64,000 bases of DNA from Chrysomallon squamiferum (GCA_012295275.1 CM022671.1:5766001-5830000); one strand, 5' to 3'; shown: positions 3,670 to 60,800, numbered from the stretch's first letter. Made by a program: numbers and translations. The notes: a model not told the origin generated them from the sequence alone.

Positions 3670-3730
3670 TGTTGACTATTAAGCAGTTAGAACAGCGTTA
3701 AAGATAATTATTATTTGCAGATCATCGAAA

Positions 3731-5618
3731 ATGATTTCTACTTTGAGTAAAACTGATTGGGAACGTCAGACCCAATGTTCAAAAGTTGTGGTGGATGGTG
3801 TAGGAGATTTTTTTTCTGAATCAGAAACAATGCAACGAAAAAAATCAGAAAAAGAAAGACTGGATACGTTTTGGAACTGGCCATCATCGTCATACCAAAC
3901 ACCGAAGTCCCTCGCCAAAGCGGGATTTTATTATACCGGAATATCGGATCGAGTACAATGTGCATTTTGTCACGGGGTTTTAAAGAACTGGCTACCGTCA
4001 GACGAACCCATGTCAGAGCATAAACTACATTTTCCATCTTGTCCATTCGTGAAAGGCGAATACGTAGGCAATATTCCCATGGCAGAAGACATGCAAATAG
4101 AAGAAAACAGACTGGCCTCGTTTTCGGCATGGCCACGAGATCGACGCCAAACGCCGAACGAACTTGCTCGTGCTGGTTTTTATTATCTTGGCGACAGCTT
4201 CAAACCGGACAGGGTGAAGTGTGCATACTGCCAAGTCAGACTGTACGACTGGATGCCAGGAGACGATCCATGGATCGAACACGCCAGAGCCTTTCCTAGA
4301 TGTCCGTACACGAAATTATGTCTTGGCCAGGATTTTATTGACGATATTCTGAAGTCAGGGACGGAACCACACCAAAGGTAATTACTTTTTTGATTATTTA
4401 GTAACTGATTTGTGTTAAAGATTAACAGGAGATTTTTACTTTTATTAATAACTAAATAAGAGTGGATTAAATACTTGATGATTATTTTGACTTATTTTTT
4501 TCAGTCAAACCGAGTATTATAGAACAAACAGTCTCATTGTACTGCTATTTGTTGATAAAAATAGTATAAAAATTCACTTCTGATTTATTGAAGAGAAATA
4601 AATGAAAAATATGCACATAAAAAAATAAAGATCATAACATAGGTAAGCATAATTTTCTTAATATTAAATTTGACAACAAAACAACAATAAATAGATTAAT
4701 AATAACTAACCAAACCAAATAAACATTTTAATGAACCAAGTAACATTTAAAAGCAGTGCTCCTGTGTTATGTCTGTGTGGATGTGTATACATGCACATGT
4801 GCTTATTTGTATATTTTTAAAAATGCAATACCAAAATACCAACTGTTATTATGAAGATAATGAGTGTACAGCAATATAACAGAAATAGAATAAAATACTA
4901 AACCAAAAAATTAGAGTATAAAATAACATAACTAGAAATACAAAAATATCTGAACACAGAAAGTGGCACAAAGGTAAGAGTTAAAATGTGATATTAAAAA
5001 CTAACATTTCGTTATACTTATTATTCTAGTAATCGGGCAGTTTTCACACCTCAAAGTTCACAAAATTCAGCATCTCAGAACACCCCTAATAATGTAGAAG
5101 TTGGAAACCAAACAGTGAATTATGAAAACAGGAGATCAGAGAGTGGAGTGAGAAAAGCTGCGAACAGCAGCCAGGTTCAAGCGATGTTGGAGATGGGTTA
5201 CCCTCGAGATTTAGTCCAGAATGCCGTGGAATGGAAGATCAGAGAAACGGGAACTGGATTCGCGTCTGCTGCTGATCTGGCTGCTCACCTTTTAGAAATG
5301 GAAGCTGAGACAAGCACAGTGTCACCAAGCAGTAGCCAAGTCTCTGTAACAAACCAAACAGCACCACAATTGTATAATCCAAGCCAACAGTCCACTTCTA
5401 CAAGTGAACAGCAGTCTACTCCTGCAAGTGAACAACAGTCCAGTTCTTTAAGCACGTTGCAAGAAAGATATCTCTGTAAAGTGTGTATGGAAAATCAGCT
5501 TCAAATGACATTTTTGCCCTGTGGTCATCTTGTTTGTTGTGGTCAGTGTGCGCTGTCTTTGGAAGTGTGTCCAATCTGCCGAACTGGTATAACTGGAATG
5601 GTGAAAACGTATTACTGA
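3731..5618 (+). CDS. Inhibitor of apoptosis protein (BIR-BIR-UBA-RING), copy 1, ~411 aa
   Basis: Exons 3731-4377 and 5030-5618 (AG|GTAATT donor, CTAAC branch point, TTCTAG acceptor, phase 2 matches). Two CX2CX16HX6C BIR motifs, a UBA-like LEMGYPRDLVQNAVE segment and a C-terminal C3HC4 RING (CKVC...PCGHLVCCGQC...CPICR). Confidence 0.97.
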
Positions 5619-10585: not shown

Positions 10586-11608
10586 CCTGCCCACAGTGAA
10601 TCAAATCGTTTTTTTTTTTTTTGTAAATTTCCATTCAGCAAAAAATGATGGCAATTGGCAGGTTATAAGTAAACAAGTTTTATACAGGGGAAGTTCTTCT
10701 ATCATTTCCACCGTCAACATTAAGTCTGCCGACTTTGAAATAGAAATAATACGAAACAGAAGATTTCCGATCGACTGTGCCCAGGTCTTCCCTACTTTCT
10801 TTACATCTAAACATACATTGGCGTAACTCACAAAGTTTCCATGATGAGTAATCACTGAAATGAAGGGAGCGAACGATAACCCCATTGGATAATTTAACGA
10901 ATATATAGGCGTGGTAATCTGAGACGGATGACTGTATAAATAATGAAGACCGGTTTTGCTTCACAGATGTTAACGAGTTTCACAACCGATCAAAGCGAAG
11001 CAGGTTCCAGCGTGTCATCCAAAAGTATGTATAAATCTCTTCCCTCGTATATTTACAAAAAAGAATGAAAGACGGTGTTTATTGTTTATTAATTAAATGA
11101 AAAATCAGAAATACATTACTTTATATATTTTATTATAATAATTTACATTAAATGGAGTGTTTTCCGGTCACCAGCGGACGAGTATTCATAAGTATAATGT
11201 ATTATATTGCTATTACTATTACTATTACAGTTACTGTATAATGTATCAGTGATACTTAGTTTACTGATATAGCTTATGATTAATACATTTCAAAATGTCC
11301 GTGTTAATATTATAGTTAAGACTTTGTATAATAACATGTTTAATTTTTATCTTTATACAAATTTTTTTACAAAATTTATCTGTTTAGAATATTAATAATG
11401 CTTAATTTTTTTTTTTTACTTTGAACAACAACTTGTTTAGCGTTCGTGTACGTACGAGAGCATGCGCGAATATTCGGAAAATAGCCAATCAAACGAGTTG
11501 GTTACTGACCTTGACACAATTTTTAAAATAGCACGAGAGTATAAATATGTTGACTATTAAGCATTTACAACAGCGTTAAAGATAATTATTATTTGCAGAT
11601 AATCGAAA

Positions 11609-13491
11609 ATGATTTCTACTTTGAGAAAAGCTGATTGGGAACCTCAGACCCAATGTTCAAAAGTTGTGGTGGATGGTGTAGGAGATTTTTTTTCTGAATC
11701 AGAAACAATGCAACGAAAAAAATCAGAAAAAGAAAGACTGGATACATTCTGGAACTGGCCATCATCGTCATACCAAACACCGAAGTCCCTCGCCAAAGCG
11801 GGATTTTATTATACCGGAATATCGGATCGAGTACAATGTGCATTTTGTCACGGGGTTTTAAAGAACTGGCTACCGTCAGACGAACCCATGTCAGAGCATA
11901 AACTACATTTTCCATCTTGTCCATTCGTGAAAGGCGAATACGTAGGCAATATTCCCATGGCAGAAGACATGCAAATAGAAGAAAACAGACTGGCCTCGTT
12001 TTCGGCATGGCCACGAGATCGACGCCAAACGCCGAACGAACTTGCTCGTGCTGGTTTTTATTATCTTGGCGACAGCTTCAAACCGGACCGGGTGAAGTGT
12101 GCATACTGCCAAGTCAGACTGTACGACTGGATGCCAGGAGACGATCCATGGATCGAACACGCCAGAGCCTTTCCTAGATGTCCGTACACGAAATTATGTC
12201 TTGGCCAGGATTTTATTGACGATATTCTGAAGTCAGGGACGGAACCACACCAAAGGTAATTACTTTTTTGATTATTTAGTAACTGATTTGTGTTAAAGAT
12301 TAACAGGAGATTTTTACTTTTATTAATAACTAAATAAGAGTGGATTAAATACTTGATGATTATTTTGACTTTTTTTTTTCCAGTCAAACCGAGTATTATA
12401 GAACAAACAGTCTCATTGTATAAAAAATAGTATAAAAATAGTATAAAAATTCACTTCTGATTTATTGAAGAGAAATAAATGAAAAATATGCACATAAAAA
12501 AATAAAGATCAAAACATGGGCAAGCATAATTTTCTTAATATTAAATATGACAACAAAACAACAATAAATAGATTAATAATAACTAACAAAAACCAAATAA
12601 ACATTTTAATGAACCAAGTAACATTTAAAAGCAGTGCTCCTGTGTTATGTCTGTGTGGATGTGTATACGTGCATATTTGTATATTTAAAAAAATGCAATA
12701 CCAAAATACCAACTGTTATTATGAAGATCATGTGTATGATGATGAGTGTACAGCAATATAACAGAAATAGAATAAACTACCTAACCCAAAAATTAAGAGT
12801 GTAAAATAACATAACTAGAAATACAAAAATATCTGAACACACAAAGGTAAGAGTTAAAATGTGATATTAAAAACTAACATTTCGTTATACTTATTATTCT
12901 AGTAATCGGGCAGTTTTCACACCTCAAAGTTCACAAAATTCAGCATCTCAGAACACCCCTAATAATGTAGAAGTTGGAAACCAAACAGTGAATTATGAAA
13001 ACAGGAGATCAGAGAGTGGAGTGAGAAAAGCTGCGAACAGCAGCCAGGTTCAAGCGATGTTGGAGATGGGTTACCCTCGAGATTTAGTCCAGAATGCTGT
13101 GGAATGGAAGATCAGAGAAACAGGAACTGGATTCGCGTCTGCTGCTGATCTGGCTGCTCACCTTTTAGAAATGGAAGTTGAGACAAGCACAGTGTCACCG
13201 AGCAGTAACCAAGTCTCTGTAACAAACCAAACAGCACCACAATTGTATAATCCAAGCCAACAGTCCACTTCTACAAGTGAACAGCAGTCTACTCCTGCAC
13301 GTGAACAACAGTCTAGTTCTTTAAGCACGTTGCAAGAAAGATATCTCTGTAAAGTGTGTATGGAAAATCAGCTTCAAATGACATTTTTGCCCTGTGGTCA
13401 TCTTGTTTGTTGTGGTCAGTGTGCGCTGGCTATGGAAGTGTGTCCAATCTGCCGAACTGGTATTACTGGAATGGTGAAAACGTATTACTGA
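11609..13491 (+). CDS. Inhibitor of apoptosis protein (BIR-BIR-UBA-RING), copy 2, ~411 aa
   Basis: Exons 11609-12255 and 12903-13491. Same structure as copy 1 with ~8 amino-acid differences, none in the BIR domains. Confidence 0.97.
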
Positions 13492-18829: not shown

Positions 18830-20253
18830 TTAACACACCGGCTGAGCCAGCGTACGCTTTGTTACTTTGCCGTCGCAGCAGAGGTCGAAGACGTAGTCGT
18901 AGACGTCGGTGTTACAACACGCTGGCCGTAGTCCCTGACGTCGCTGAATCACACCCGAGCAGCAAATGTGAGTCCTGGGATGATAGAGCTTTCCCTCACA
19001 TCTCCCTGAAATATTTAAATAAATAAGTAAATAAATAGGTGGGTAATAGTAATTAAAATTGTAGCAGTAGCAGCAGTAGTAGTAGTATAGGAGCAGCAGT
19101 AGTAGTAGGAGGAGTAGCAGGAGGAGCAGTAGGACTAGCAGAGGTAATAGTAGTAGTAGTAACAAAAATAGTCTTTCAGATTAACTGATATTAAAATAAT
19201 ATTTATTTTATCTTTCAGAATAATTGCCCAGATTCTGTTCCAAAAAAAACAGAAATTTGTGAGAAAGAAAACATTACGGATGTTTGGAACACAAAGGTAA
19301 GTAAAAGGGAAAAAAATCATAAAGGTGAGTATATTCATCATAGCTGTCTGTAATTACAACACAGGTAATCTAATAATATTCGTATTGTTAAATAACAGAG
19401 ACAGAAAGGTGATAGTTATACAGAAGTAGATGTGTAAAATAATTATTACCTATTTGATACACGTTAATATGTAATTTATTTTCAATACGTTAGTATGCAG
19501 TGTTCAGTACGTTGGTATCTAGTTGATGTTTATTACGTTATTACATAATTAATGTTCAAAACAATACACAGTTAAGGTGTATTATGTTAATATGCAGTTG
19601 ATGTTAATTACATTAATACGCAGTTGATGTTACTATATTATGTATTTCTTGATGTTCCTTGTATTAGCGCATAGTTGATATTCATGTTAATACATTGTTA
19701 ATGATCAGTACATTTATCCGTAGTTGATGTTCATTATGTCAATACGCTGTTGATGTTTATTAAAATAAATTAATTTATTATGTTAATACGCTGTTGATGT
19801 TTATTAAAATAAATTAATTTATTATGTTAATACGCTGTTGATGTTTATTAAAATAAATTAATTTATTATGTTAATACGTCGTTGATTTTTTTTTATTATT
19901 AAACTAAATTAATTTATTATGTTAATACGCTGTTACCAAACATTTTACTTACCGTCTACAGCTTTTCCTTTATTCTTTGGCATTTTTCTGTGGTGTCCAT
20001 GAGGTCCATCGATAATGTTGTTCACATTGTAGTTACTGTAGTCATTTACTATTCGATGCTGCTGTCGTTGCCCGACACGATCCTGTCGCTGCAGTGGCTG
20101 TTGGACAGCGTTCTTTTTATCCGGAGCGGAAACTTCTCTTAATTTGCCATTTCTGCGAAACGGACTTTTGGGAAAATTCTGTGTCCGCTTCTGTCCGGTG
20201 ACGACAGCAGCAAGACAAACCACGAGCATGAACAACAACGTTAGCGACGACAT
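18830..20253 (-). CDS. Secreted galaxin-like (Cys-Cys repeat) protein, ~158 aa
   Basis: Exons 20253-19953 and 19005-18830 (G|GTAAGT donor, TTCAG acceptor, phase 1). Signal peptide MSSLTLLFMLVVCLAAVVTG, a basic Q/N/R-rich region, then RCEGKLYHPRTHICCSGVIQRRQGLRPACCNTDVYDYVFDLCCDGKVTKRTLAQPVC. This matches the galaxin/usherin-type CxGxxYxPxxxxCC repeat. Confidence 0.85.
19480..19935. repeat. Intronic minisatellite: degenerate ~22-bp units grading into homogeneous ~44-bp units
   Basis: Degenerate GTTGATGTT..TT motifs from ~19480; near-perfect TAATACGCTGTTGATGTTTATTAAAATAAATTAATTTATTATGT x4 at ~19740-19935. Confidence 0.85.
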
Positions 20254-20970
20254 GACGACGTCGTCATCAATACCTCTTTGCCAGTCAATATAATCCTACA
20301 GCTATCTGAAAACAGTTTGGTGGGGTGGGTTGGGAAAGAAAAAACAGTCTTTCTTTTAACGCAGAATAACCGAATCGTTTGGTCTGATGATTCTCAGTTA
20401 AATGGCTGCTCCCAGAAACTTCTCACTCTTTAAATATCGCGTTTGAAAGTGGTTTTTTTTTTTTTTTTTTTTTTTTTTGCCTCTCGCCTGGTCATCGAAC
20501 GTACAAACAGGAAAATGTTTCTGTTCGCATGTGTCGTTCATGTGCTTATAAGCAAGCACACACACACACAGATCAATACGCCCATGTTTGACCAGGCAAC
20601 AAAGCAAATCTCTGCCACAACATGAACTGTCTGTTTGAAGACGTGCTGGCAGCGAGAACAATTTTCACATCTTTGCGATGATACGAAATCTCGCGGATTA
20701 GCGGATTCCTGCAACAATAAACAGTCTTATATCGACAATAAATGCATCCTTGGCAATCTGCAAAACTCTGATAAAATATTTCTAATATTTCCGGGCGATG
20801 ATGTTTGGTTGGCGGTTTTTCTAAGCTCGTGTTTATAAAATGAGGATGTTTGGTGTTTGTTTTCTTCTCTTATATTCGATTCCTTATTTTATTTGTTTTG
20901 TTTTGTTTTTCTTTAGTTTCATGGTGCGTTTTGATTTCATTTTAGTGTTACGGAATTTTCAGATTGTTTA

Positions 20971-24873: not shown

Positions 24874-25312
24874 AAATACAAGAATATAATAATAATAACG
24901 AAATTAACAATAATAGTAACAACAATGATGATAATAAAAGAAAACCAATAATAACAACAGCATAATAATAATAACAAACTCAACAATAAAAACAATATAA
25001 TAATACTAAGAACAACAACAATAGCATTGACATTAACAATAACAACAATGTTAATAAAAATAAAAACAACAACAATAACAACAACGATAATAACAATAAC
25101 ATCTTTTACTAAAAACATTTAAAAAAAAAAAAAAAAATTAAATTAAAGGTATCTGTTTCAGTTATGATGTAAGTGTTTTCCCATGAAGAGTTTACAAATA
25201 CTATACTGGCCAGTCCATAACAGAATAACAACAACTGATACATTAACATACCGGTATGGAATATGAAATAAACTTGTGAGTGTAATCTTTTGACAGATCT
25301 GAAAATATAAAA

Positions 25313-25347
<35 letters not shown>

Positions 25348-25761
25348 ATAGATAGATAGATAGACAGACAAACAATGGCAGAAATCAAAGAGACTCTGAC
25401 GATCATGACGACAACAAACAAACAATGACGCAATTAATAAAATAGTTTTTCCAGTTACATTTATATTGTATTCAATAAATTCATTCAAAAACCAGCTTGT
25501 ATTATACTTACGATCTAAATACGTAAACAGTTTAATATAACCCAGTCTGTCCAGTAGGGCGTTCAGATTTCCGGTTTCTGCGGCCGCCAGAAGTTCAAAG
25601 GTTATGACCTTTTCATGTTCCGGTAGGGATGAGAAAAATGGCGCCTGCTCAATATCGTCAATGAGACTAATAAATGAAAACTGCGTTTCCTGTGAGGGCG
25701 GAATAGAGGCACCGTTTACGAAGACGAAAAGAAAACCCAAGCACAGAAACACTTTTATCAT
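24794..25761 (-). CDS. Gene A: small secreted protein, signal peptide plus one shared helical 'Y' domain, ~107 aa
   Basis: Exons 25761-25512, 25298-25252 (47 nt) and 24820-24794, all GT-AG and in frame: MIKVFLCLGFLFVFVNGASIPPSQETQFSFISLIDDIEQAPFFSSLPEHEKVITFELLAAAETGNLNALLDRLGYIKLFTYLD|HLSKDYTHKFISYSIP|FLKKELEI*. Confidence 0.88.
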
Positions 25762-25884
25762 GATGTTTTCTGAAATGTAAATATTAATATATCTTATGTC
25801 AGTTATTTATTTAATAATTTGCGCCATTTTTGTTTAGACGCAATTTGGTTTTATTTTATTTTTTATTTTATCAGTATAAATAGT

Positions 25885-34079: not shown

Positions 34080-36271
34080 GCAGAATAAGTGTTCAGATTA
34101 AAAATAATTCAGAAAAATGGTGCATAATTAATAATAATGTCTTCTGCATTGCTATATTTCCAGTTATTCACATTTCATTTAAAAATTTTCATTTTTTTTT
34201 TTTACTTTCTACACCCGAACTGAATTAATTTTAATTCAGTACATCCCAAGAGTAAATTGGTCCTTTCAAAAAATGATTAAAACCGTTCTTACCTGTAACA
34301 GAAAAGCAAGAAACTGCTCTATGTATTTTGTAGGTAAATCTGCAATTAAACACGTTACAAAGTGAAATTTTAAAAATATATAGACACAAACTGAAATATA
34401 CTAATAAGCTTACTCTGTGCTGTATATAGTTACAATAGAGGTTTTTCTCTAAAAATATGTTTGCCTGTTGTCTTTTTTATTTTTATTTTTTATTTATTTT
34501 ATTTTATATAGGGCCTCACAATCTAATATTTTTTCTTAAACTGATATACAATTCTCTGTTGACTTTTATAAAAGTTCCCCACAGCTTTGGGTCTCGTGTT
34601 ATCTAAATACGACATCACCATCATAATCAACATCGTCATCACAAAAAAACTATATAGATTTAATAACTTTATCAAATCCTGGACACTTACTGAATATAAA
34701 CTTGATAAACCAGACACTTACTGTATATAAACTTTATAAACCAGACACTTACTGTATATAAACTTGACAAACCAGACATTCACTGTATACAAACTTCACA
34801 AACCAGACACTCACTGTATATAAACTTCACAAACCAGACACTTACTGTATATAAACTTGATAAACCGGACACGTACTGTATATAAACTTGATAAACCAGA
34901 CACTCACTGCATATAAAATTGACAAGCCAGACGCTCACCGTATATAACTTTGATAAACCAGACACATGCTGTGTACAAACTTGATAAACCAGACACTTAC
35001 TGTATATAAACTTGATAAATTTTTCAAAGCCCAGGTGCTCGAGGACTTCGTTAATCTTGTGACTCTGGACTCCGGCCGCCAACTCGTAGACGGTCATTCT
35101 GTCAGAGACTGGAAGCTTCTGGAAATATCTCTCGTGTTCAATCGCGCTGAACAGAGCCAGAATCTCTTCCAAAGTCACCTTCGTGCCGCTCTTAGGAGTT
35201 GAGACAGGTTTGGAAGAAGTCCTGGTTTCAGCCGTTGATGCGGTAGAGACGTCCGTAAGCGACGGTGACGTTGCTGATGCGGTAGAGACGTTTGTAAGCG
35301 ACTGTGACGTTGCTGATGCGGTGGAGACGTTTGTGAGCGACTGTGACGTTGTTGATGCTGTAGAGACGTTTGTAAGCGACGGTGACGTTACTGATGCGGT
35401 AGAGACGTCTGTAAGTGACTGTGACGTTGTTGATGCGGTAGGAAAGTTTGTAAGCGACTGTGACGTTGTTGATGCGGTAGAGACGTTTGTCATTGGTGGT
35501 GACGTTGCCGATGACGAAGGTGTGTAGGTCACGTATTGTTTAGTTGATGTTTCAAAAGCAGTGGATGATGATTCGCCCGAGGGAAATGACGTTGTTGCTT
35601 TCGTAGGTATCGTTGTCATCGATTCGCCAGAATCCGTTGATGACGTCCCTTCATCTGTCATTCCATACTGTTTTGTCACCCCGCTGGAGTATTTTGATAT
35701 CATGTCCATGGTTGTAAGATCAGAATCTTTTGTTTCCATGGAAACTGTACTTGTACTGTCTGGAAACGTAGAGCTTTGGTAGCTGGGTTGTTCGGATGGT
35801 TTTGAATATTCATAAGTTTTGCTAGTTTCCTGCGGCATTGGTTTGGTAAACAATGTTGGAGGTGCTTCAGTTTTCAATGCAAAAGCCCCTGATGGAGTTG
35901 GCACTAAATGTTTTGGAACGTCAAGAGATTCTGTAGAAATAATCTGTAATAAGAAAACATAAGAAAATATTTTCTTCGTACGAAAAGACAGAAAATTATC
36001 AGAGGCAGACAGAGAGACAGGCAGAAAGTCACATAGAGAGATAGAAAAACAGACAGACAGAGAGACAGACAGACAGATAAATAGACAGACAGATAAGAAG
36101 AATTATGGATACTCAGAAAATCAGAAAATGACTAAAGGAAAAATGGAAAGAAAAACCTACAGAAAGGATAAGAAAGAAAGAAAGAAGGACAAAGGGATAG
36201 ATGGAAAGAAGAGATTGTACCTGTGATATTACAGACAGTGTTAAGATCACTTTCACAACAGATGACGTCAT
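33907..36271 (-). CDS. Gene C: secreted mucin-like Ser/Thr-rich protein with a C-terminal 'Y' domain, ~357 aa
   Basis: Exons 36271-36221 (MTSSVVKVILTLSVISQ, signal), 35943-35001, 34339-34293 (47 nt) and 33939-33907. C-terminus ...FQKLPVSDRMTVYELAAGVQSHKINEVLEHLGFEKFIKFIY|NLPTKYIEQFLAFLLQ|GLKLEREIVH*. A likely non-coding exon has its donor at ~37005. Confidence 0.88.
34660..35020 (-). repeat. 31-bp minisatellite made of the gene C exon end plus splice donor
   Basis: Unit (minus strand) TTTATCAAGTTTATATACA|GTAAGTGTCTGG, ~11 copies. The first copy overlaps the exon ending at 35001. Confidence 0.92.
35235..35490 (-). repeat. 39-bp coding tandem repeat (13-aa TNVSTASTTSQSL, ~6.5 copies)
   Basis: Visible in both DNA and translation of gene C; several units carry an N-V-S sequon. 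Confidence 0.93.
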
Positions 36272-38216: not shown

Positions 38217-38781
38217 CTTTATCTCAAACTGCCGGCAAATCACGTCCGTTTCACCCATACACCATATTATTTTATTAAAGTACATTCTTCATTTTTATTT
38301 ATTTCTGTTAGTTTGCAAAGCAGAAAATAATAAAAATTTCTTTATAGTTTAACAGATTATTATTCCTTTTTAGTTGGTTCCATTTATTTAGTGTTTTTGG
38401 AATTTTCTAACAGAATTAGTTAAACCGTTTCGATAAAACAGGTTGTGTGAACATAGTTTTAGTCAAATCATGTCAGTGTTCCCCCCACCATAGGTTAATG
38501 CATCGACCGTGTTTGTATAAATTAGAAAGCAAACTGGATTCATATATGTGTTATCTTAACTAACTAAATAAATAAATGAATGACTAATTGAATGGATAAA
38601 TAAGTAAGTACGAAAATGAATAAATAAAGAAAAACAAAATGAATAAATAAAGAAACAAACAAATAAATAAAAAAAATTAAAGACAATACATAAACTTTCA
38701 ATATTTATTTATTAAAATATTAAATTTAGAATGATGTGAACACAATATTTGTAATGAAATCTCTTTGAAATCGCTTTGAAA

Positions 38782-38806
38782 TCATTTCGTGAACTGCAAA
38801 ACATAA

Positions 38807-38840
<34 letters not shown>

Positions 38841-38903
38841 GTAACAATAACAACAACAACAATAAAAACTAATAATAATAATAATAATAACAACAACAAC
38901 AAC

Positions 38904-38935
<32 letters not shown>

Positions 38936-39361
38936 TAATAATAATAATATGCCTCTCATTTTCTTTCTCTCCCTCTATCTCTCACTCTTTCTATGAACAT
39001 ATCTCTTGTGTTTCCGCGTATTAATGACTATATCATTTTTGTGTCTAACTATTCAGTGTATTAACAATACTGTCTGACAAATATCAACATATATTAAACT
39101 ACCGTTCTTGATGATGTCATAATTTCATCGTTATATTTCAGTATCGCATAATTATTAATTTACCTTAGACAGCAGATGAATAATTCCGTTTAACTTTTCT
39201 GTCGTTTTGTGTGGAACTGCTGCAATAATAAAAAAAAAATCCTTTGAAATGTATTTATATATATATATAAATCATTGATGGTCATAATAAGAATAACATA
39301 GAGTGCCCGAGATTAGAAAGATAGAAGGTGGCCTTACGGATTACATATACATACACACACA

Positions 39362-39403
<42 letters not shown>

Positions 39404-39649
39404 TACCTTTGGGACTGTTCACTATTGCGTCTTTAATGATGTGTTTCGCTAGTAACGGGATATTTTCCTGCGATGGCGTGATGCCGTACATTTTAGCAAG
39501 ATGTTTGAAAGAATTAGGAAGACGAAGTTGTTCTGGATGATGACGTCGCAAGTCTTTTTTCGACAGCCGATTGAAGTCGAACTTTTCTTTGATAGTCTTC
39601 TCAGCTTTGCTCAGCAGTTCCTTGCTGATCAGGTTTTTTACACTGTTTC

Positions 39650-39715
<66 letters not shown>

Positions 39716-39992
39716 TGATAACAATGATGATGATGATAATAATATTGATAACAACAATATCAATTATTATTATTATAAAAAATAAATACAGCAACGATGA
39801 TGATAATAATAGTAGTAATAATAATAAAACAGAAAAACCATTGATAATGATAATTATTATGATGATGATGATGATGATGATTAACGTAACAACTGCACAA
39901 CTAATATTAGAACTATTAGATAAACTTAATTCTGAAGAAGTAAAGTATGGACAGAAAGAGAAAGAGAGATGTGAAAAGAAAGAAAAATCATT

Positions 39993-40031
<39 letters not shown>

Positions 40032-41187
40032 TAGATCATATTAAATATACTAAGATAGATATGTGTTTTTCTTTAAAGTTAGGGAAGAAAGAAAACTTAC
40101 ATATCTGACTTAGCTTTTGTTTCTATATCTTTAAGATTAGCCTCCAGGGAGTTCACTAAGTCAAACACAAATCTCTTTACTGGTAACATCGGCTTCGAAT
40201 CGCTTCGTTTGTGAACAACATCGCTGATGACGTTAGTCAGATCAGTCCCAGTAGCGAGATCTAAAACATCGCCAATCCCCGCTTCAATAGCATTCAGCGG
40301 CTTCTCGATCGTTTCCAAAACCTCGCTCCAAATGTCTCGTCTTCCATTGCTGGTGTCCGAACTCAGGAGCTCGGATGCTGCTTCTACGATCGCCAGGGTC
40401 ATTTGGAACCCTATTTGTTCTAATGGGCTTATGATTTTGTTCCACGTTTCGTTGAAAACATTTCTCTTTTCTCTCCCTTTAGCATCATTTACAGCTTCGT
40501 GTAAAATTTCTTTGCAGCTTCAGTCAGAAGTTGTACAGTTTGCTTTGCTGCAGCTTTTAAGGGCTCCGTGAAACGCTGCCAGACGTCGAATACATTTCGT
40601 TTGCCGATAGCCGATTCGTGATGCTGGAGGTCGCTTAGTAAAACCCCGACTAACGCCTGGACAGATTTCTCGCCTGCTATTTGCAGAGGAACCTTCAGGC
40701 TCTTGAAAAAGTCCTCAAAAATATTTCGTTTATCGAGTTTCGAAGGTGTCGTCTGCTTTATACCTTGTCTTGCTTCAGACTTTTGCGTTTGTTTCATTTC
40801 TTCCATCTCAGCGATCATTCTCATGATATTCGTCAAATCGTGGACTTTCTGTATCCAGATGTTGTCTACATCCCTTCTTCGTTGTCCCACGGCAGTTTCG
40901 GCTGCTTCGTGGATCGTCATGGCGGCCACATCACCCAGAGTTAGTATCGTCTGCTTCCCAATCTGTTGCAGCGGGAGTTTAATTCTACCCCACAGTCGGT
41001 GAAGAATGCCTCGTTTCTCCGTATTCTTGAAAAATTCATGTGACTCTATATTTGGTGCGAATGCGCGAGAAATTTCAGATTGGGAAAAATAATCTTCTTG
41101 ACTTTTAGTTTTCAAAACATTAGCAGACGATTTTATCAGGAAGCACGACACAACGGCAGCCAAGAAAAATAGAGCACCAGACTGCAT
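38782..41187 (-). CDS. Gene D: secreted polyprotein precursor with dibasic-site-delimited amphipathic peptide repeats and a C-terminal 'X' module; ~465 aa if a 1-nt deletion at ~40512 is corrected
   Basis: Exons 41187-40101, 39648-39407, 39219-39164 (56 nt) and 38793-38782 (FTK*); phases 2,1,0. Signal MQSGALFFLAAVVSCFLIKSSA; KR/RR/RRR sites every ~40-47 aa. ORFs 40489-41187 and 40097-40402 join if one A is added at GCA AA[A] GAA ATT. Confidence 0.85.
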
Positions 41188-41599
41188 CGTTCAAATACTG
41201 AAACTAAAACGAAACAGAAAAAAAAATTTTTGGCTATCTTTTAAAGGAAACGATATACCTTAATACTTCTGTTAAGGGGAAGTACCTAGAACGGGATATT
41301 ATCTCAACAGGTGCATCGAAAGGTTCGATTCTGTGATCCACCATGTCTAATGGATACGTTATATAGTCAGTAAAATTATATTCATGCTCAAAACTAAACT
41401 AATGATAAAAAATAATAAAAACATTAAAAACATTAAAAATTTAAATATTAAAAATATTTGAGGAAACAAAATAATAAAAAAAAAAAAAAAAAATTCAATT
41501 TAAAAAAAAAAAAAAAAAAAAAAACAGTTGTTTTACTTTTCATAATTATTTCTTTAATAAAAATTCTTCAAATATTTTCAAGAGTTATGAACAACTTAC

Positions 41600-41690
41600 C
41601 TCCAACGTGTAACGTAAATTTTTCACAGTTTGACATAAATTTGAGAAATCTGTATTTATAAACGAATTTTGAGCTGTGTTGAAGATAAGT
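41600..41690 (-). promoter_or_regulatory. Gene D TATA promoter and short non-coding exon 1
   Basis: TATAAATA at 41660-41653, a GATA motif AGATAAG at ~41682, and donor GAG|GTAAGT at 41600/41599. The acceptor lies 10 nt before ATG 41187. Confidence 0.6.
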
Positions 41691-41945
41691 CACACAGAGG
41701 TATGTTTTATTACGTAAGACTGAATATCAGTGTCATTTCAGATATTTGTTAGAACGTGCCATGCAGACATTTAGAAGTATTATAAAGAGGTGTGTAAAAT
41801 GTTGGTTAATGCGATTTTTCGGAAACACGTAGATCTCCACAGACTTTTGAAATTCAAAATGGCGTTAAGGCAGACGACGTTAATTGTTGTTTTATTTATC
41901 TGTTATCATTTTCATCATCATCATCATCATCTTATTATTATTATT

Positions 41946-41996
<51 letters not shown>

Positions 41997-42755
41997 ATTA
42001 TTATTATTATTAATAAATAAATAAAATGAAATCTGTGTATGTATGTGTTTTTGTTTTGTGTGTAGGCAGGAACAGTGGCGTACTTAAGCTGATTTTATGG
42101 TAAAGTTATTCTGAACGATGGATGTGGGATATTTGGATAGGGGTGCAATTTCAATGCTTGACAAAGGAGTTATTTCGTTATAAATTTTTCGTGGCATCGG
42201 CTGTTACCGAACAACTTAAAGATTTGCTTCAGACAGTTAATCTAAAAAATGTTCCAAGATAAATCCATATCCGTTATATACAGATCAGTTCAGTCGAATG
42301 TAATAATAAAATGCCGTAATAGAATGTTTATCTGTAGAACTTGTGTGTTCTTGTACACTAGATTTCGTTTTTCTGTTGTTAAAGTGTTGTTCTTAAATTA
42401 CACCTTTTTTTTCAGACTCACCGTCTTCCTAGTTTCTTGTGTCAGCTTTCAGAATAAATATGCTGCGTAATTCAACTTGTAATTGTAACTGTGGGAAATT
42501 TGAAAATGAAAGTTGACCGGACATATTTTCTTATAAAGTAAACTTTCGGTTCTCAGACAGTGAATAATAGCCATTTGAATAATTGTATATTAAAATATTT
42601 ATGTTGTCATTATTCAGTTGTTACTGACGATTTATCGTTAGATTTATAGTCAGTTTAGCCGTGTGTTTTTGGGTGGGTTTTTGTTGTTGTTTTTGTAACC
42701 TTTTGTTGTCTTGAATTAGGTGGGGTCGCGTAGGTGGTTTATTCTATGAGTATCT

Positions 42756-53951: not shown

Positions 53952-55262
53952 TTAATCGAGTCCTTCTCTCTCTTTGAAAGCTTTTTTCATCTCCAGTCTG
54001 CGTTTGTTTGTCTTCTTCTGCAGCAGTCGACTTTGTGAGTTTTCTTTCACTCTTAGTGCTAGGAAACTGTTTTCTCCGTTCAGACAAAAATCGACCTGTT
54101 CCACCAGCCTCTCTCTCGCTCGCTTACGATTTTTAACAAGCGACCGTGTTTCGTGACACTGAAAATACAAGTAGACATCTTGTTTTTAATGTTTATTCTA
54201 TCACAATTTTATTTTTGACCCATTTTATTTTATTTTCACATTAGTCTGTTTTCATGTTTATTTCTTCTGGTATGGACTTACTGATGTTTTATAAAAAAAA
54301 TATTATCCAAAGATTTAAATTAATTTGTATAGATCAAAACCAACTTCTGAATTTACAACTTTCAGTTAAGGAATATTTTTAAAATATGGAAATTTAACTT
54401 TTTAAACTGTTTGTGACAAAGAGAAGATTTTGAGTTCAGTCGTAAGTTAAATGTCTCTTTATTTACACAGTTTTTCATTCAACAATTAGTTCAAATAATT
54501 TCTAAAAGTTTAATTTGATTAGTTTGATTTTCAAAACTGATCAATTAGCCATTTTGTTTTAAAATTGGACAGTTTTAATTTATAATATATTTAATGCTAT
54601 TAATGATACACATAACTGTTTAAAACAAAAAAATTCAAATCAAAGAAATTAATTTTTAAAAATAAAATTCAATTTATAGGTTTCATTAATAATATTATCC
54701 TGAGTATCTTTTACTTTGGAATGTTACATTAGAAATTATCCACACATCTATTAGCTTTTTTCACTTGTGTTATTGCAGACTGTGCTGCTTTGTGCTCAAG
54801 AATTAGACTCACTTTGACAGTAACTCCGGTAGGCAAGTGTTGTAACACGACACAGTTTGTTGTCTTGTTCACTGACTGACCTCCTGGTCCACTGCCTCTC
54901 ACAAATGTCTCCTTCAGCTCCTCTTCTTTTATTTCTGGAAATATGTATGTTTTTTTAGACACTCCACAAATCTGAGCAGCACGAAAATTCCTGAAATAAG
55001 TTTTGTGAATATCTTCGTTATTTCTGTTCCTTGAAAACAGATAATTTACATGAGGGTTTAGAGTGTGTAAACTCCTGGTTTTGTGAATATTTCCAATGTC
55101 TGCTTTTCTTGAAAACAAATGATTTACTGTAGAGTTTATCGCATGTCCCCAGTCCTGTGTTCTCCCAAAGATGAAGTTGTGTACATGATGTTGTAACGGA
55201 GATGTTTGTGTGAAAGTTTTTGCTGTAGATGTGACCAGACAGAGATGTCGGATGCCAATCAT
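53952..55262 (-). CDS. MTRFR: Mitochondrial translation release factor in rescue (C12orf65), ~218 aa
   Basis: Exons 55262-54813 and 54158-53952. ELKETFVRGSGPGGQSVNKTTNCVVLQHLPTGVTVK|CHETRSLVKNRKRARERL is the GGQ release-factor domain of the C12orf65 type. The C-terminal tail is basic and the N-terminus resembles a transit peptide. Confidence 0.93.
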
Positions 55263-55342
55263 TCCAGGATTTGCTATTCAAATCAGCAGCAGCTGATCAT
55301 TTAGTTAAATTCCTTTAAACAAAAATTTAAAAATTTAAATAA

Positions 55343-57425: not shown

Positions 57426-57813
57426 ATAACTGATACTTTGATTTTAAAAAACATGTTTTGTAGAAAAAAAAGCAGCAAGAAAATTAGAATTTATTTTAAT
57501 TTATTTTAAATTTATTTTAAAAAGTAGAAATGAGTACGTTAAAATCAAAGCACAGTCTCCATTAATATGGCAGTGATCCCATTATGAATGTATGAATAGA
57601 AATTACAATAAACAAAACAGTTAAGCTAAGCTAAGTTAAAGGTGACTAATGTACCCTTCTAACATCTGTCCTAAGCAGCTAAGCTACTACCAGCCATGTG
57701 TGTGTGTGTTTGTCTTGTTTACATAAAAACAATTAAAAAAGAAATTTTAACAAGACGTACTTTATCAACACAAAGTTATCATTTTATCTGTTCTTCTTTT
57801 CAGATAGGTAAGA

Positions 57814-60800
57814 ATGGAACCAGACAATGCAGGAGGAGACAGGAAGCTGGATGATCAGAAACTGTCTCCAGTTACTAAGACAGATGAGGAGAACATGGAT
57901 GACTTCTTCTCAGGAATGTCTAGAGAAAGACCAGTGACTCCTGGACAGGATTCTGATCCTGTTGAAGTCTCATCTCCACAGAAGCACACTGACAATGAAG
58001 TTGGTGATGCCAAGGTGCAGACAGAAGTGGCAACAGAAGACGATGGTTCAAAGCTGCCTGAATTAAAAGAGGATGGTCATAAAAATGATGAAGTCGTTGT
58101 AGAAAGTGAAAACAAGGCACTGATAGTTGTCACTGGACCTGATGAAAATCCAGACTTGATTGTGAGTCCTTCTGATGATCCATTGTCATCTAAACCTGCT
58201 GGAACAGAAAGTGAGACAGAATCTGAACAAGAATCAAAGGTGGATGAACAAATTTTGAGAGAATCTAAAGATTCTGATTTGTATCAGAGTGAATCTGAGG
58301 AGGCTGAGGCATCCGTGAAGGAATTTGTGAAATCAGATGAAATCCTGAAAACATCCGAGAATGCAGACGAGCTTCTCAAGGCATCAGAAACAATCCAGGA
58401 AGGAGAAGAACACTCACAAGAACCTGAGGAGGTGGAGCTGCCAAAGGTATCATCAGAGTTAGAGGAAACCTTAGGAGAGTCAAAAGATTCTGAGTTGGAA
58501 GTTGATAAAGAGAGTAGAGACTCAGAGGAAGAGAAAGACAAAGAAGTGGATGATGACAGTGATAAAGAGAATCAGGAAGCAGCTATCAATTTTGTTCAAG
58601 ATGTTTTTGAAAAGGCCACACCGATCAGCAAAGACTTTGGTGTAGAATCTGCGTCAGATCAAGAAGATCAAGAAAATGATGTGGGTGAAGAGCCTGAAGA
58701 ACCAACAGTAAAAGAAGATGGTGGAGATATTTCTGATTCTGAAGTCAGTTCGGAGAATCGTGGTAAAGAGACTGTTGAAGACACAGATCATAAAGGAAGA
58801 ATCACAGATATTTCAGGAGATTTCCTTGACAATAAGCATATGTCACAGTCTGAAGATGTTGTTTCAGTGGAAACTGAAGACAAAGTAGAAATGGCAAAAA
58901 CAGATGAAAGTTTATTTGTAAAACAGCAAGAATTTCAGTCTTTTCCTGTGAATATAGAGGATCTAGAAGAAATCAAAGTAAAGACAGTTGATACAGACAA
59001 ACACAAACCTCATTCACATCTTCCTTTGAGTGAAAATATTTACAGAATATGTGATGAAATGTCTCCCAAACTGACTCATTCTCAACTGCTAGAAGAACAA
59101 AGTAAATATATTCAGAAACCTCCAATCCCAGAACTGCAACTGAAAAGAGAAGACATTCAAAGACATCTGGTCAGAGGTGAAGAACAAGTGAGTGCAGCAG
59201 ATGTAGAAAGAATGAAGTCTAAAGATGGACACATTCAGAGTTTGGATCAGGACTATTCATCAGCTCTGGACGACCAGACCTCCGTCAGCCATGCTTCTGC
59301 TGAAATTGTCACTGATGAAGACTGGTCTGAGAATGAAAGGAAAGACTATTCTAGAGTTAAAAAATTACTTAAAGACAAGAGCCAGAAGGAAGGATTTGAG
59401 TCTAAATTAGACAGACAGCTACCTAGTCAGCCTCCTGCTTCTGCCTCGCTGGAATACGAGCTGAAACATCCACTTAAACCTGTCAGCAAGACAGACTCAC
59501 AGGGCGAATCTTACAGTCAGACCAGCAATATCAAACTGTTTGCTAAACGATATGACATGTCAAACAACAATGTTAGCATTGGAGGTTCGTATCTGACCTC
59601 AGAACATGACCGAGATAATGTGTATCCCAGGCCAAGGTCTCTAGTTACTGATGCTCATCAGACTGCTAGCTGGAGTCCAGGAGTTGCTGTGTCTCCACCA
59701 AGTTCTGGTCCAGTGCCTGGTTACAAGTCGTTACAAGATCAGCAGGTTTGTCAGTGTTACAGCAAATGGCAACTCAACGCATTGCAATGTTAACCTGTTT
59801 GTTATATCTTTTATTTTTCACATTATTGAGTAATAGTGATATTTAAGTTGTAACTGAGAAAACCCTCAGCTGTCATTCCATTAGCTGCTCTTATCAATTA
59901 AATTCAAGTAGGTTTTGTAAATAGACCTCCCTCTAGACAGGAAAAATATGTTACAAGTTCTTTGATAAATCATTCTGCTTCTGAATTACAGCAGCCCACA
60001 TTAACATCCCATTCAGTAATTTAGTTCATAACAAATATAATAAATAAATATGATAAATGAACAGAAATGTTTGAAGTGGTATAGAGGTGAAATACTTAAA
60101 ATTATCTTTATTTGGGTGAATTTAGGAAGAGGTAAAATGTCTTCTCTCCTGCACTTATTTACTTTAAAGTGTCTGTCTTTATGTACATATTTATACATGA
60201 CTAAGTGTCAGTGACACTATTCTCAAACATTTTTATATTCATGAAAAAAAAAAAAAAAACATTAAAAAAATGGCTTCATTGATCACATCAGTACTTTTAT
60301 TAGTCATTTAGTGATAACATTTTTTTTTAATAGTTAATCTGCATGTTCTTGTTGGAACTAAACCAGTCTGTAAATAATCATGGAACATCTATGTCATTTT
60401 TAAAAAAATAAAATGTTTCAACATTAGTTTTGTTATTTATTAATTTAAGAAAGTTTTCGTAAAAAATTTTTAGTTAATTAATTTTATAAATAATGATAAG
60501 ATTCTGAAATGAAGAATGAAAATAAATTTTTAATAATTTATACTGTATTGTTTTTGTGTTTTTTTTATAATTAACACAAACTGGACTTGCCCTAAATCAT
60601 TTCATGTTTAAGAAAATTTGATAAGAAAATTAGCAATATGTTTTCATAAGTAAAGTTACTTGTTACAAATATTATAATAATGTATTCAAAATATGTTTTC
60701 TCGTCTAAATGTTTGTGTTCTTGAATGACTTCCTCTCTTCATAATTAAGACAAGTTACCGAATCACTGATACATATTTTTTCAGATGTCCTGGCTGCAGA

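Follow-up and report, generated by a model that had tools for sequence, protein, structure and literature searches.

What does an orphan gene make when its predicted protein reads as a string of related peptides separated by basic residues? The question is raised by a locus in a 64,000-nucleotide (nt) stretch of Chrysomallon squamiferum DNA (GCA_012295275.1 CM022671.1:5766001-5830000), which we refer to as the window. On its minus strand lies gene D, described in a first-pass annotation as a polyprotein predicted to release five homologous amphipathic peptides of ~41-43 amino acids (aa), in the manner of precursors of antimicrobial peptides (AMPs) or cytolysins. Our analysis bears out the polyprotein layout: a signal-like N-terminus is followed by five stretches bounded by the basic runs KR, RR or RRR, and homologous proteins keep both the units and the pairs that flank them. 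The reading that we favor, to which the sequence gives what we judge to be an even chance, is that gene D is an orphan, lineage-restricted gastropod gene for a secreted, cysteine-free multi-peptide proprotein with signaling or regulatory products rather than classical cationic antimicrobials. That the protein is processed into peptides in the first place seems slightly more probable than the opposite.

The first coding exon of gene D spans 40101..41187 on the minus strand, as delimited by open reading frames (ORFs), their translations and tblastn with a homolog from the snail Gigantopelta aegis. It encodes, in order, a signal-like segment, a pro-region and five repeat units with their spacers; the features of this exon listed here all lie on the minus strand. 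A signal peptide of ~23 residues (41119..41187) is predicted from inspection of the translation and its alignment with the N-termini of both homologs. The Met is followed by a hydrophobic stretch of ~14 residues without charge, and both homologs align at a small-x-small site near residue 23. Unit 1 (43 aa, net charge +1) occupies 41010..40882, or 40873..41016 with its flanking KR and RRR, and is separated by a 47-aa spacer (40732..40872) from unit 2 (41 aa, net charge -2), which occupies 40725..40603, or 40597..40731 with the KR on both sides. Unit 3 (40469..40596, net charge about -1) is split by a frameshift, with 28 aa in frame A (40596..40513) and ~15 aa in frame B (40513..40469). Unit 4 (40 aa, net charge -4) lies at 40462..40343, or 40337..40468 with the KR before it and its Gly-Arg-Arg end. 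Unit 5 (42 aa, net charge -8), the most diverged, lies at 40336..40211, within a part delimited at 40205..40342, and is followed by KR. The exon closes with a 9-aa fragment, a KR pair and a 24-aa tail (40101..40204). This stretch may hold the start of a degenerate sixth unit, for which there is a weak match to a hidden Markov model (HMM) of the units (independent E value 0.38) and a z-score of 2.8 between unit 5 and the tail.

When both translations were cut at basic runs of at least two residues, every unit start and end in the window protein fell at KR, RR or RRR. The cut reproduced the peptides of the first-pass annotation exactly; units 1, 2 and 5 have the lengths first proposed, and unit 4 falls one residue short of that range. 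All five units are free of Cys, as had been stated; the sole Cys of the homology-supported reading sits in the signal-like segment. A Gly precedes the basic pair at the ends of two units, again as claimed, giving Gly-Lys-Arg after unit 2 and Gly-Arg-Arg after unit 4.

Are the five units truly related to one another? Local alignment against shuffled sequences gave a clear answer for the first four. Units 1, 2, 4 and the N-terminal part of unit 3 are mutually similar (z 4.3-10.3; 0-2 of 1000 shuffles score as high). The N-terminal part of unit 3 matches units 1, 2 and 4 at z 6-9, and its C-terminal part matches the C-terminus of unit 1 at z 4.2. Unit 5, on the other hand, is only weakly similar to the others: its best pair reaches z 3.05 (16 of 1000 shuffles), and the other three pairs are not significant. 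The initial claim of five homologous units is thus sound for units 1-4 and weaker for unit 5. The same shuffle-tested alignment showed no relationship between the units and either the 47-residue spacer or the pro-region. We found no tandem repeat at the DNA level in exon 1, so the duplications that produced the units are old.

An alignment of all five units leaves three invariant columns only, the Arg of the preceding basic pair and a Pro-Leu. The conserved Pro-Leu had been noted earlier and is present in every unit, but the position assigned to it, 12-13, is correct for unit 3 alone; in the other four it occupies positions 13-14. The N-terminal 18-mer of each unit is strongly amphipathic, with a hydrophobic moment (muH) of 0.49-0.58 that is reached by 0-3.3% of shuffles. 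AlphaFold2, given unit 1 alone with its paralogs as the alignment, predicts one helix with a predicted local distance difference test score (pLDDT) of 73 and does not resolve a kink at the Pro. Both results agree with the amphipathic N-terminal helix that was originally proposed.

We then asked where else such a protein occurs. A profile of the gene D protein and its homologs, run with HMMER over 1.84 billion representative proteins at E values up to 0.001, recovered two relatives only. A word-based search returned the same two from 309 candidates, as did a five-unit window profile compared with longer proteins (4459 candidates). The first is the product of Gigantopelta aegis LOC121368787 (XP_041349468.1, 'uncharacterized protein'; 402 aa, E 3e-33, 40% identity). 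The second is an unnamed protein from ENA (346 aa, E 2e-26), which has a near-identical cluster mate of 349 aa (the pair P0004/P0006). Overall identity to the homologs is 36-40%. A pattern scan of metagenome contigs yielded 56 matches, 0 of them confirmed, and tblastn found no second copy of gene D in the window, the sole other match having an E value of 3.6. Searches of Pfam with the window ORFs (E up to 10) and the homologs (E up to 1) returned sub-threshold noise only. None of the four proteins matched an antimicrobial-peptide, hormone or apolipoprotein family there, nor did any of them match ELH, DH44, CRF or the other long helical hormone families in that database. Searches of the PDB by sequence and by two profiles gave no match, and a literature search on the locus name LOC121368787 found no paper. 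Among papers listed for neuropeptides of Gigantopelta aegis, none was seen to deal with this protein.

The homologs share with gene D a signal-like N-terminus, the order of the units and basic pairs at unit boundaries, and conservation between the proteins is concentrated in the units. Units are 42-63% identical to their Gigantopelta counterparts overall (z 10-29): 29/46 residues for unit 1 (z 27), 27/45 for unit 2 (z 29.5), 19/42 for unit 4 (z 17.6) and 15/36 for unit 5 (z 10). Unit 4 is also identical to the ENA homolog at 21 of 35 residues (z 18.7). In the pro-region, the spacer and the tail, conservation with the homologs is not detectable (z <3; 0.9 and -0.8 for the spacer between units 1 and 2). 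Most of the unit-flanking basic pairs are kept in both homologs, and the Gly-Lys-Arg after unit 2 is kept in all three species. A four-row cross-species alignment has residues in all rows for unit 4 alone; its invariant columns comprise the K-R pair and the first unit residues beyond it (N-V-F, W and P-L). Comparing P0004 with P0006 points the same way: the two differ by 12 substitutions and one indel, and 0 of these 13 differences fall in canonical unit 1, 2 or 4; together the three account for about 36% of the length.

The unit complement is not identical among the proteins. The window unit HMM recovers four units in the Gigantopelta protein and three in the ENA protein, and the third unit of both homologs is without the canonical N-terminal half. 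The ENA homolog further differs from gene D in that no match to unit 5 was found in it and in having two additional short N-terminal unit fragments, as detected by the unit HMM. One of these fragments is 12 residues long with KR on both sides, a feature that a peptide precursor would account for more readily than a folded repeat protein would.

Proneuropeptides and prohormones are characterized by a signal peptide and by peptides that have dibasic sites on either side (PMC6425005). Gene D shows a signal-like N-terminus, conserved peptides with basic flanks, and peptides that are more conserved than the spacers. A signal-like N-terminus, conserved units with conserved basic pairs, and drifting spacers together match the signature of a proprotein cleaved in the secretory pathway. 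Under such a scheme the signal peptide would be removed, proteases of the prohormone-convertase type would cut after the basic pairs, and a carboxypeptidase would then trim the basic residues. Amidation could follow where Gly is exposed, here in units 2 and 4. The released helical peptides of ~40 residues would be the active species and would probably act as extracellular signals or regulators.

Signaling is favored over lysis in this scheme because the units are neutral to strongly acidic, are strongly constrained, and have no paralog within the 64 kb of the window. Between species, conservation extends to every unit taken singly, which we count towards ligand-like peptides with conserved N-termini. 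Taken as parts of the case for processing, a signaling or regulatory role is to our minds a credible outcome, although short of an even chance, and a membrane-active or defensive role is improbable.

A number of observations weigh against a processed precursor, and several of them fit a different kind of protein. The first concerns the basic sites themselves. The window protein contains 8 dibasic runs where its composition predicts 5.4, and 614 of 5000 shuffles reach 8; the count is likewise within the compositional expectation in both homologs. We therefore dropped dibasic-site enrichment as an argument in its own right, and the sites carry weight only through their position and conservation. 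Even there the pattern is imperfect: the sites before unit 1 and after unit 4 are monobasic in both homologs. Conserved units joined by variable linkers are equally expected of a helical-repeat protein that is never cleaved. Mutually different peptides of ~40 residues are unusual for multi-copy neuropeptide precursors, and PMC6425005 cautions that some secreted globular proteins were wrongly taken for neuropeptide families. The structural models count for little on this point, as the absence of a fold from AlphaFold2 is weak evidence when the alignment has 4 rows. Finally, the gene as assembled would yield a 232-residue protein that carries units 1 and 2 and breaks off within unit 3.

The rival that these points suggest is an intact secreted helical-repeat protein, for example one that binds lipids or surfaces as exchangeable apolipoproteins do, with the basic pairs lying uncleaved in the loops between helices. 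Beyond the chance-level number of basic runs and the fit of conserved repeats with variable linkers, this idea can draw on amphipathic helices of ~2 x 22 residues punctuated by Pro and on a sub-threshold ApoLp-III match in the tail of the ENA homolog (E 0.93, 10.1 bits against a cutoff of 36.3). It is at odds with the lack of any Pfam or PDB sequence match and with the models, neither of which shows confident tertiary packing. For the Gigantopelta protein, AlphaFold2 with the four-row alignment gives a pLDDT of 33 and a predicted template modeling score (pTM) of 0.21, with helices that coincide with the units and do not pack, and the Atlas model has a pLDDT of 0.41. Three features of the basic sites are also hard to place in a repeat protein: the Arg of the basic pair is among the three invariant columns of the paralogous units, the ENA homolog carries its short KR-bounded unit fragment, and Gly-Lys-Arg follows unit 2 in 3/3 species. 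On this evidence we consider an uncleaved repeat protein a serious rival but a rather doubtful one, and we continue to favor the multi-peptide precursor.

If peptides are released, must they be signals? Originally they were proposed to be membrane-active, with antimicrobial or cytolytic properties that are perhaps pH-dependent or synergistic. Strong N-terminal amphipathicity with aromatic residues and a predicted helix is what such peptides would show, and the narrow taxonomic range of gene D is typical of defense peptides. The nearest named language-model cluster is that of the bombinin AMP precursor, for the window protein (0.84) and for the Gigantopelta protein (0.79) alike. However, neither Atlas score attains the 0.9 bar, shuffled proteins score 0.8 in a third of cases, and the queries, being homologs, are not independent of each other. 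There is no match to the Pfam Bombinin family either. The net charges of the units run from +1 to -8. Anionic helical AMPs do exist, dermcidin being one example; theromyzin, another, is listed in a review (PMC12466427).

Two further points tell against a lytic role: the units are strongly conserved, with 0 differences between the ENA variants, in contrast to AMP families that evolve fast, and only one copy of the gene lies in the window. The gastropod AMPs Cm-p1, Pom-1/2, Dolabellanin B2 and the Rapana peptides are not described as multi-unit precursors in the passages of PMC12466427 that name them. We conclude that the AMP or cytolysin label has no positive evidence behind it beyond amphipathicity and the sub-threshold resemblance to bombinin, and we regard membrane-active peptides as an unlikely outcome. 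The reading of gene D as a precursor of signaling or regulatory peptides remains the one we prefer.

Can this copy of the gene make such a precursor? Across exon 1 the assembly holds not one ORF but two, of 232 and 140 codons. On the minus strand, frame A begins with the ATG at 41187 and continues for 232 codons to a stop at 40491-40489, and frame B, offset from it by one base, is open over 40519..40100 (140 codons). A TGA of frame B at 40522-40520 and the TAA of frame A at 40491-40489 limit the position of the one-base frame change to an interval of 28 nt (40492..40519, minus), which contains short A and T runs. Unit 3 crosses this interval. The first-pass annotation overlooked the change and treated the unit as a single continuous peptide, which it is not in the assembled sequence. 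The Gigantopelta protein matches 41187..40591 and 40510..40115 by tblastn in two different frames, which shows that the downstream half does code for protein and makes the frame change a lesion, be it of the genome or of the assembly. Because the C-terminal piece of unit 3 in frame B matches the C-terminus of unit 1, the frameshift must lie within a unit that was once continuous. A tiny intron or a programmed frameshift was rejected, as the two frames overlap by 28 nt only and have homologous coding sequence on both sides; inspection of the overlap also revealed no canonical slippery heptamer.

Either the assembly has an indel at the short A/T runs, or a mutation or allele has inactivated the gene very recently; we rate these explanations about equal. 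Under the second, the copy in this genome would be a recently inactivated pseudogene or a loss-of-function allele, and its 232-aa frame A product would be made poorly or not at all. We place this only a little below an even chance. The switch of frames within 40519..40492, with homologs aligning on both sides in different frames, is what such an allele would look like. A premature stop well upstream of an exon junction exposes an mRNA to nonsense-mediated decay, and here ~390 nt separate the stop from the predicted exon 1 donor downstream of it. The other long ORFs of the window, namely both IAP copies and a 661-codon ORF, are intact, indicating that the assembly is not riddled with indels. 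Against inactivation, the frameshift is the sole lesion in the 1087 nt of exon 1, the 140 codons beyond it are still open and conserved, the predicted second exon is still in frame with frame B, and short A and T runs such as those in the interval are places prone to assembly indel errors.

The gene also appears to extend past the point at which it had been thought to end. Position 40101 is the end of an exon, not of the gene: a GTAAGT 5' splice donor occupies 40095..40100 (minus), and the apparent stop codon of the ORF falls inside it. Both ENA homolog ORFs end at the position that aligns with this donor, and the Gigantopelta model runs 39 residues further. From the donor we predict a first intron of 452 nt (39649..40100, minus), which has a GC content of 0.18, contains TAA/TGA/TTTA microsatellites, and terminates in a T-rich tract and AG. 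A second exon at 39407..39648 (minus) probably follows. This predicted exon is in frame with exon 1 across a phase-2 intron and ends in AG before a GTATGT donor. A restricted Smith-Waterman comparison aligned it with the C-terminal 39 residues of the Gigantopelta protein in the same register (4-38 to 4-38), a score reached by 5-8 of 2000 shuffles; BLASTP against the Gigantopelta protein gave no useful match. Exon 1 has a GC content of 0.44, compared with 0.18-0.25 in its flanks, and exon 2 one of 0.41; around the two exons the range is 0.18-0.31.

Our proposals for the promoter and for any further exon are guesses. By inspection, a TATA-like TTTAAAA lies at 41239..41245 (minus), ~55 nt before the ATG. 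The region can also be read as a pyrimidine tract with an AG acceptor at ~41200, in which case there would be an intron in the 5' untranslated region. Downstream of exon 2, a short open stretch after a T-rich tract and AG (39165..39232, minus) provides a candidate third exon at ~39220..39165; it has the phase expected after exon 2, which is its sole support, and it ends either in AAG before GTAAAT or at a nearby stop. Rfam identified no family over 38500..42500. Antisense ORFs of 96-126 codons on the plus strand gave no family, and we took them to be shadows of the coding strand.

The window as a whole is AT-rich and filled with microsatellites, and it contains several other coding features. 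Two near-identical tandem copies of an IAP gene lie ~7.9 kb apart on the plus strand (3683..5618 and 11603..13491), each with an exon carrying two BIR domains and an exon with UBA and RING domains; the closest named protein is a BIRC7-like protein of Gigantopelta aegis at 60% identity. ORFs at 25243..25806 and 34780..36102 (both minus) share a domain of ~55 residues (BLASTP E 7e-8, 27% identity) that has no Pfam family. The former begins with a signal-like segment, and the latter has a long, mucin-like Ser/Thr-rich repeat array. At 18830..19180 and 19945..20295 (both minus) we identified a galaxin-like Cys-rich repeat exon (Pfam Galaxin_repeat, E 8e-11) and an adjoining ORF, which has a signal-like N-terminus and a basic Gln/Arg-rich body and belongs to no family. 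An exon at 54729..55277 (minus) encodes an RF-1 domain (Pfam E 2e-12), which we take to be of the type found in mitochondrial peptidyl-tRNA hydrolase ICT1-like proteins. The 661-codon open frame mentioned above (57808..59793, plus) encodes a very acidic, low-complexity Ser/Glu/Asp-rich sequence without a Pfam family.

What would gene D add if the multi-peptide reading is right? A precursor of several peptides processed at dibasic sites is a well-known kind of gene; what appears to be new here is a family without a detectable relative beyond three snail genomes. Should processing hold, its products would be long, linear, lineage-restricted peptides with no detectable relative elsewhere among the 1.84 billion representative proteins. 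Gigantopelta aegis, a deep-sea snail that bears symbionts, is the sole named species in which a homolog occurs; in such a host, peptides secreted as signals or to handle bacteria would deserve special attention. A more ambitious proposal is that the family is confined to neomphaline-type gastropods and that one precursor yields five or six different peptides of ~40 residues, mostly anionic amphipathic helices, each of them conserved in its own right. These would be new hormones with their own receptors or agents of a pH- or metal-dependent host defense in hot-vent peltospirid snails, for instance in managing bacterial partners. We view this as a long shot. If processing does occur, gene D would join the few lineage-specific peptide innovations reported for mollusks (PMC6425005).

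How, then, does gene D compare with known systems? Like gene D, exchangeable apolipoproteins and apolipophorin-III (PF01442, PF07464) consist of tandem amphipathic helical repeats punctuated by Pro. In contrast to apolipophorin-III, gene D has conserved basic pairs at every repeat boundary, and its sequence resemblance to that family comes down to the sub-threshold match in the tail of P0004. The AlphaFold2 model of the Gigantopelta protein shows no packed helix bundle, although at a pLDDT of 33 it says little on this point. Among antimicrobial precursors, classical cationic alpha-helical AMPs of the cecropin, dermaseptin and magainin type have the amphipathicity seen in gene D together with a net positive charge, whereas the gene D units range from +1 to -8. 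Amphibian bombinin precursors resemble gene D on paper: a single precursor carries several Cys-free linear peptides that form amphipathic helices, with spacers and basic pairs between them. Bombinins are, however, cationic and ~20-27 residues long, whereas the gene D units are ~40 residues long and neutral to acidic, and they have no profile match to bombinin or bombinin-H (PF05298). Cecropins combine an N-terminal amphipathic helix, a hinge, a more hydrophobic C-terminal helix and a C-terminal Gly for amidation. The gene D units recall this design in their aromatic amphipathic N-terminus, the Pro at 12-13, the Ala/Val/Leu-rich second half and the Gly at some of their ends. They depart from it in lacking a cationic charge and a sequence match, and AlphaFold2 models a single continuous helix without a resolved hinge.

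Proneuropeptides and prohormones are the class to which the reading that we favor would assign gene D. Gene D differs from them in the length of its units, in their mostly acidic character and in having no match to a Pfam hormone family. Precursors that carry several distinct but related peptides are known, the proglucagon and ELH types being examples. Gene D resembles proneuropeptides and prohormones in its related peptides bounded by basic residues, in the Gly before some of the pairs, in its variable spacers and in having peptide N-termini that are conserved directly after the predicted cleavage site.

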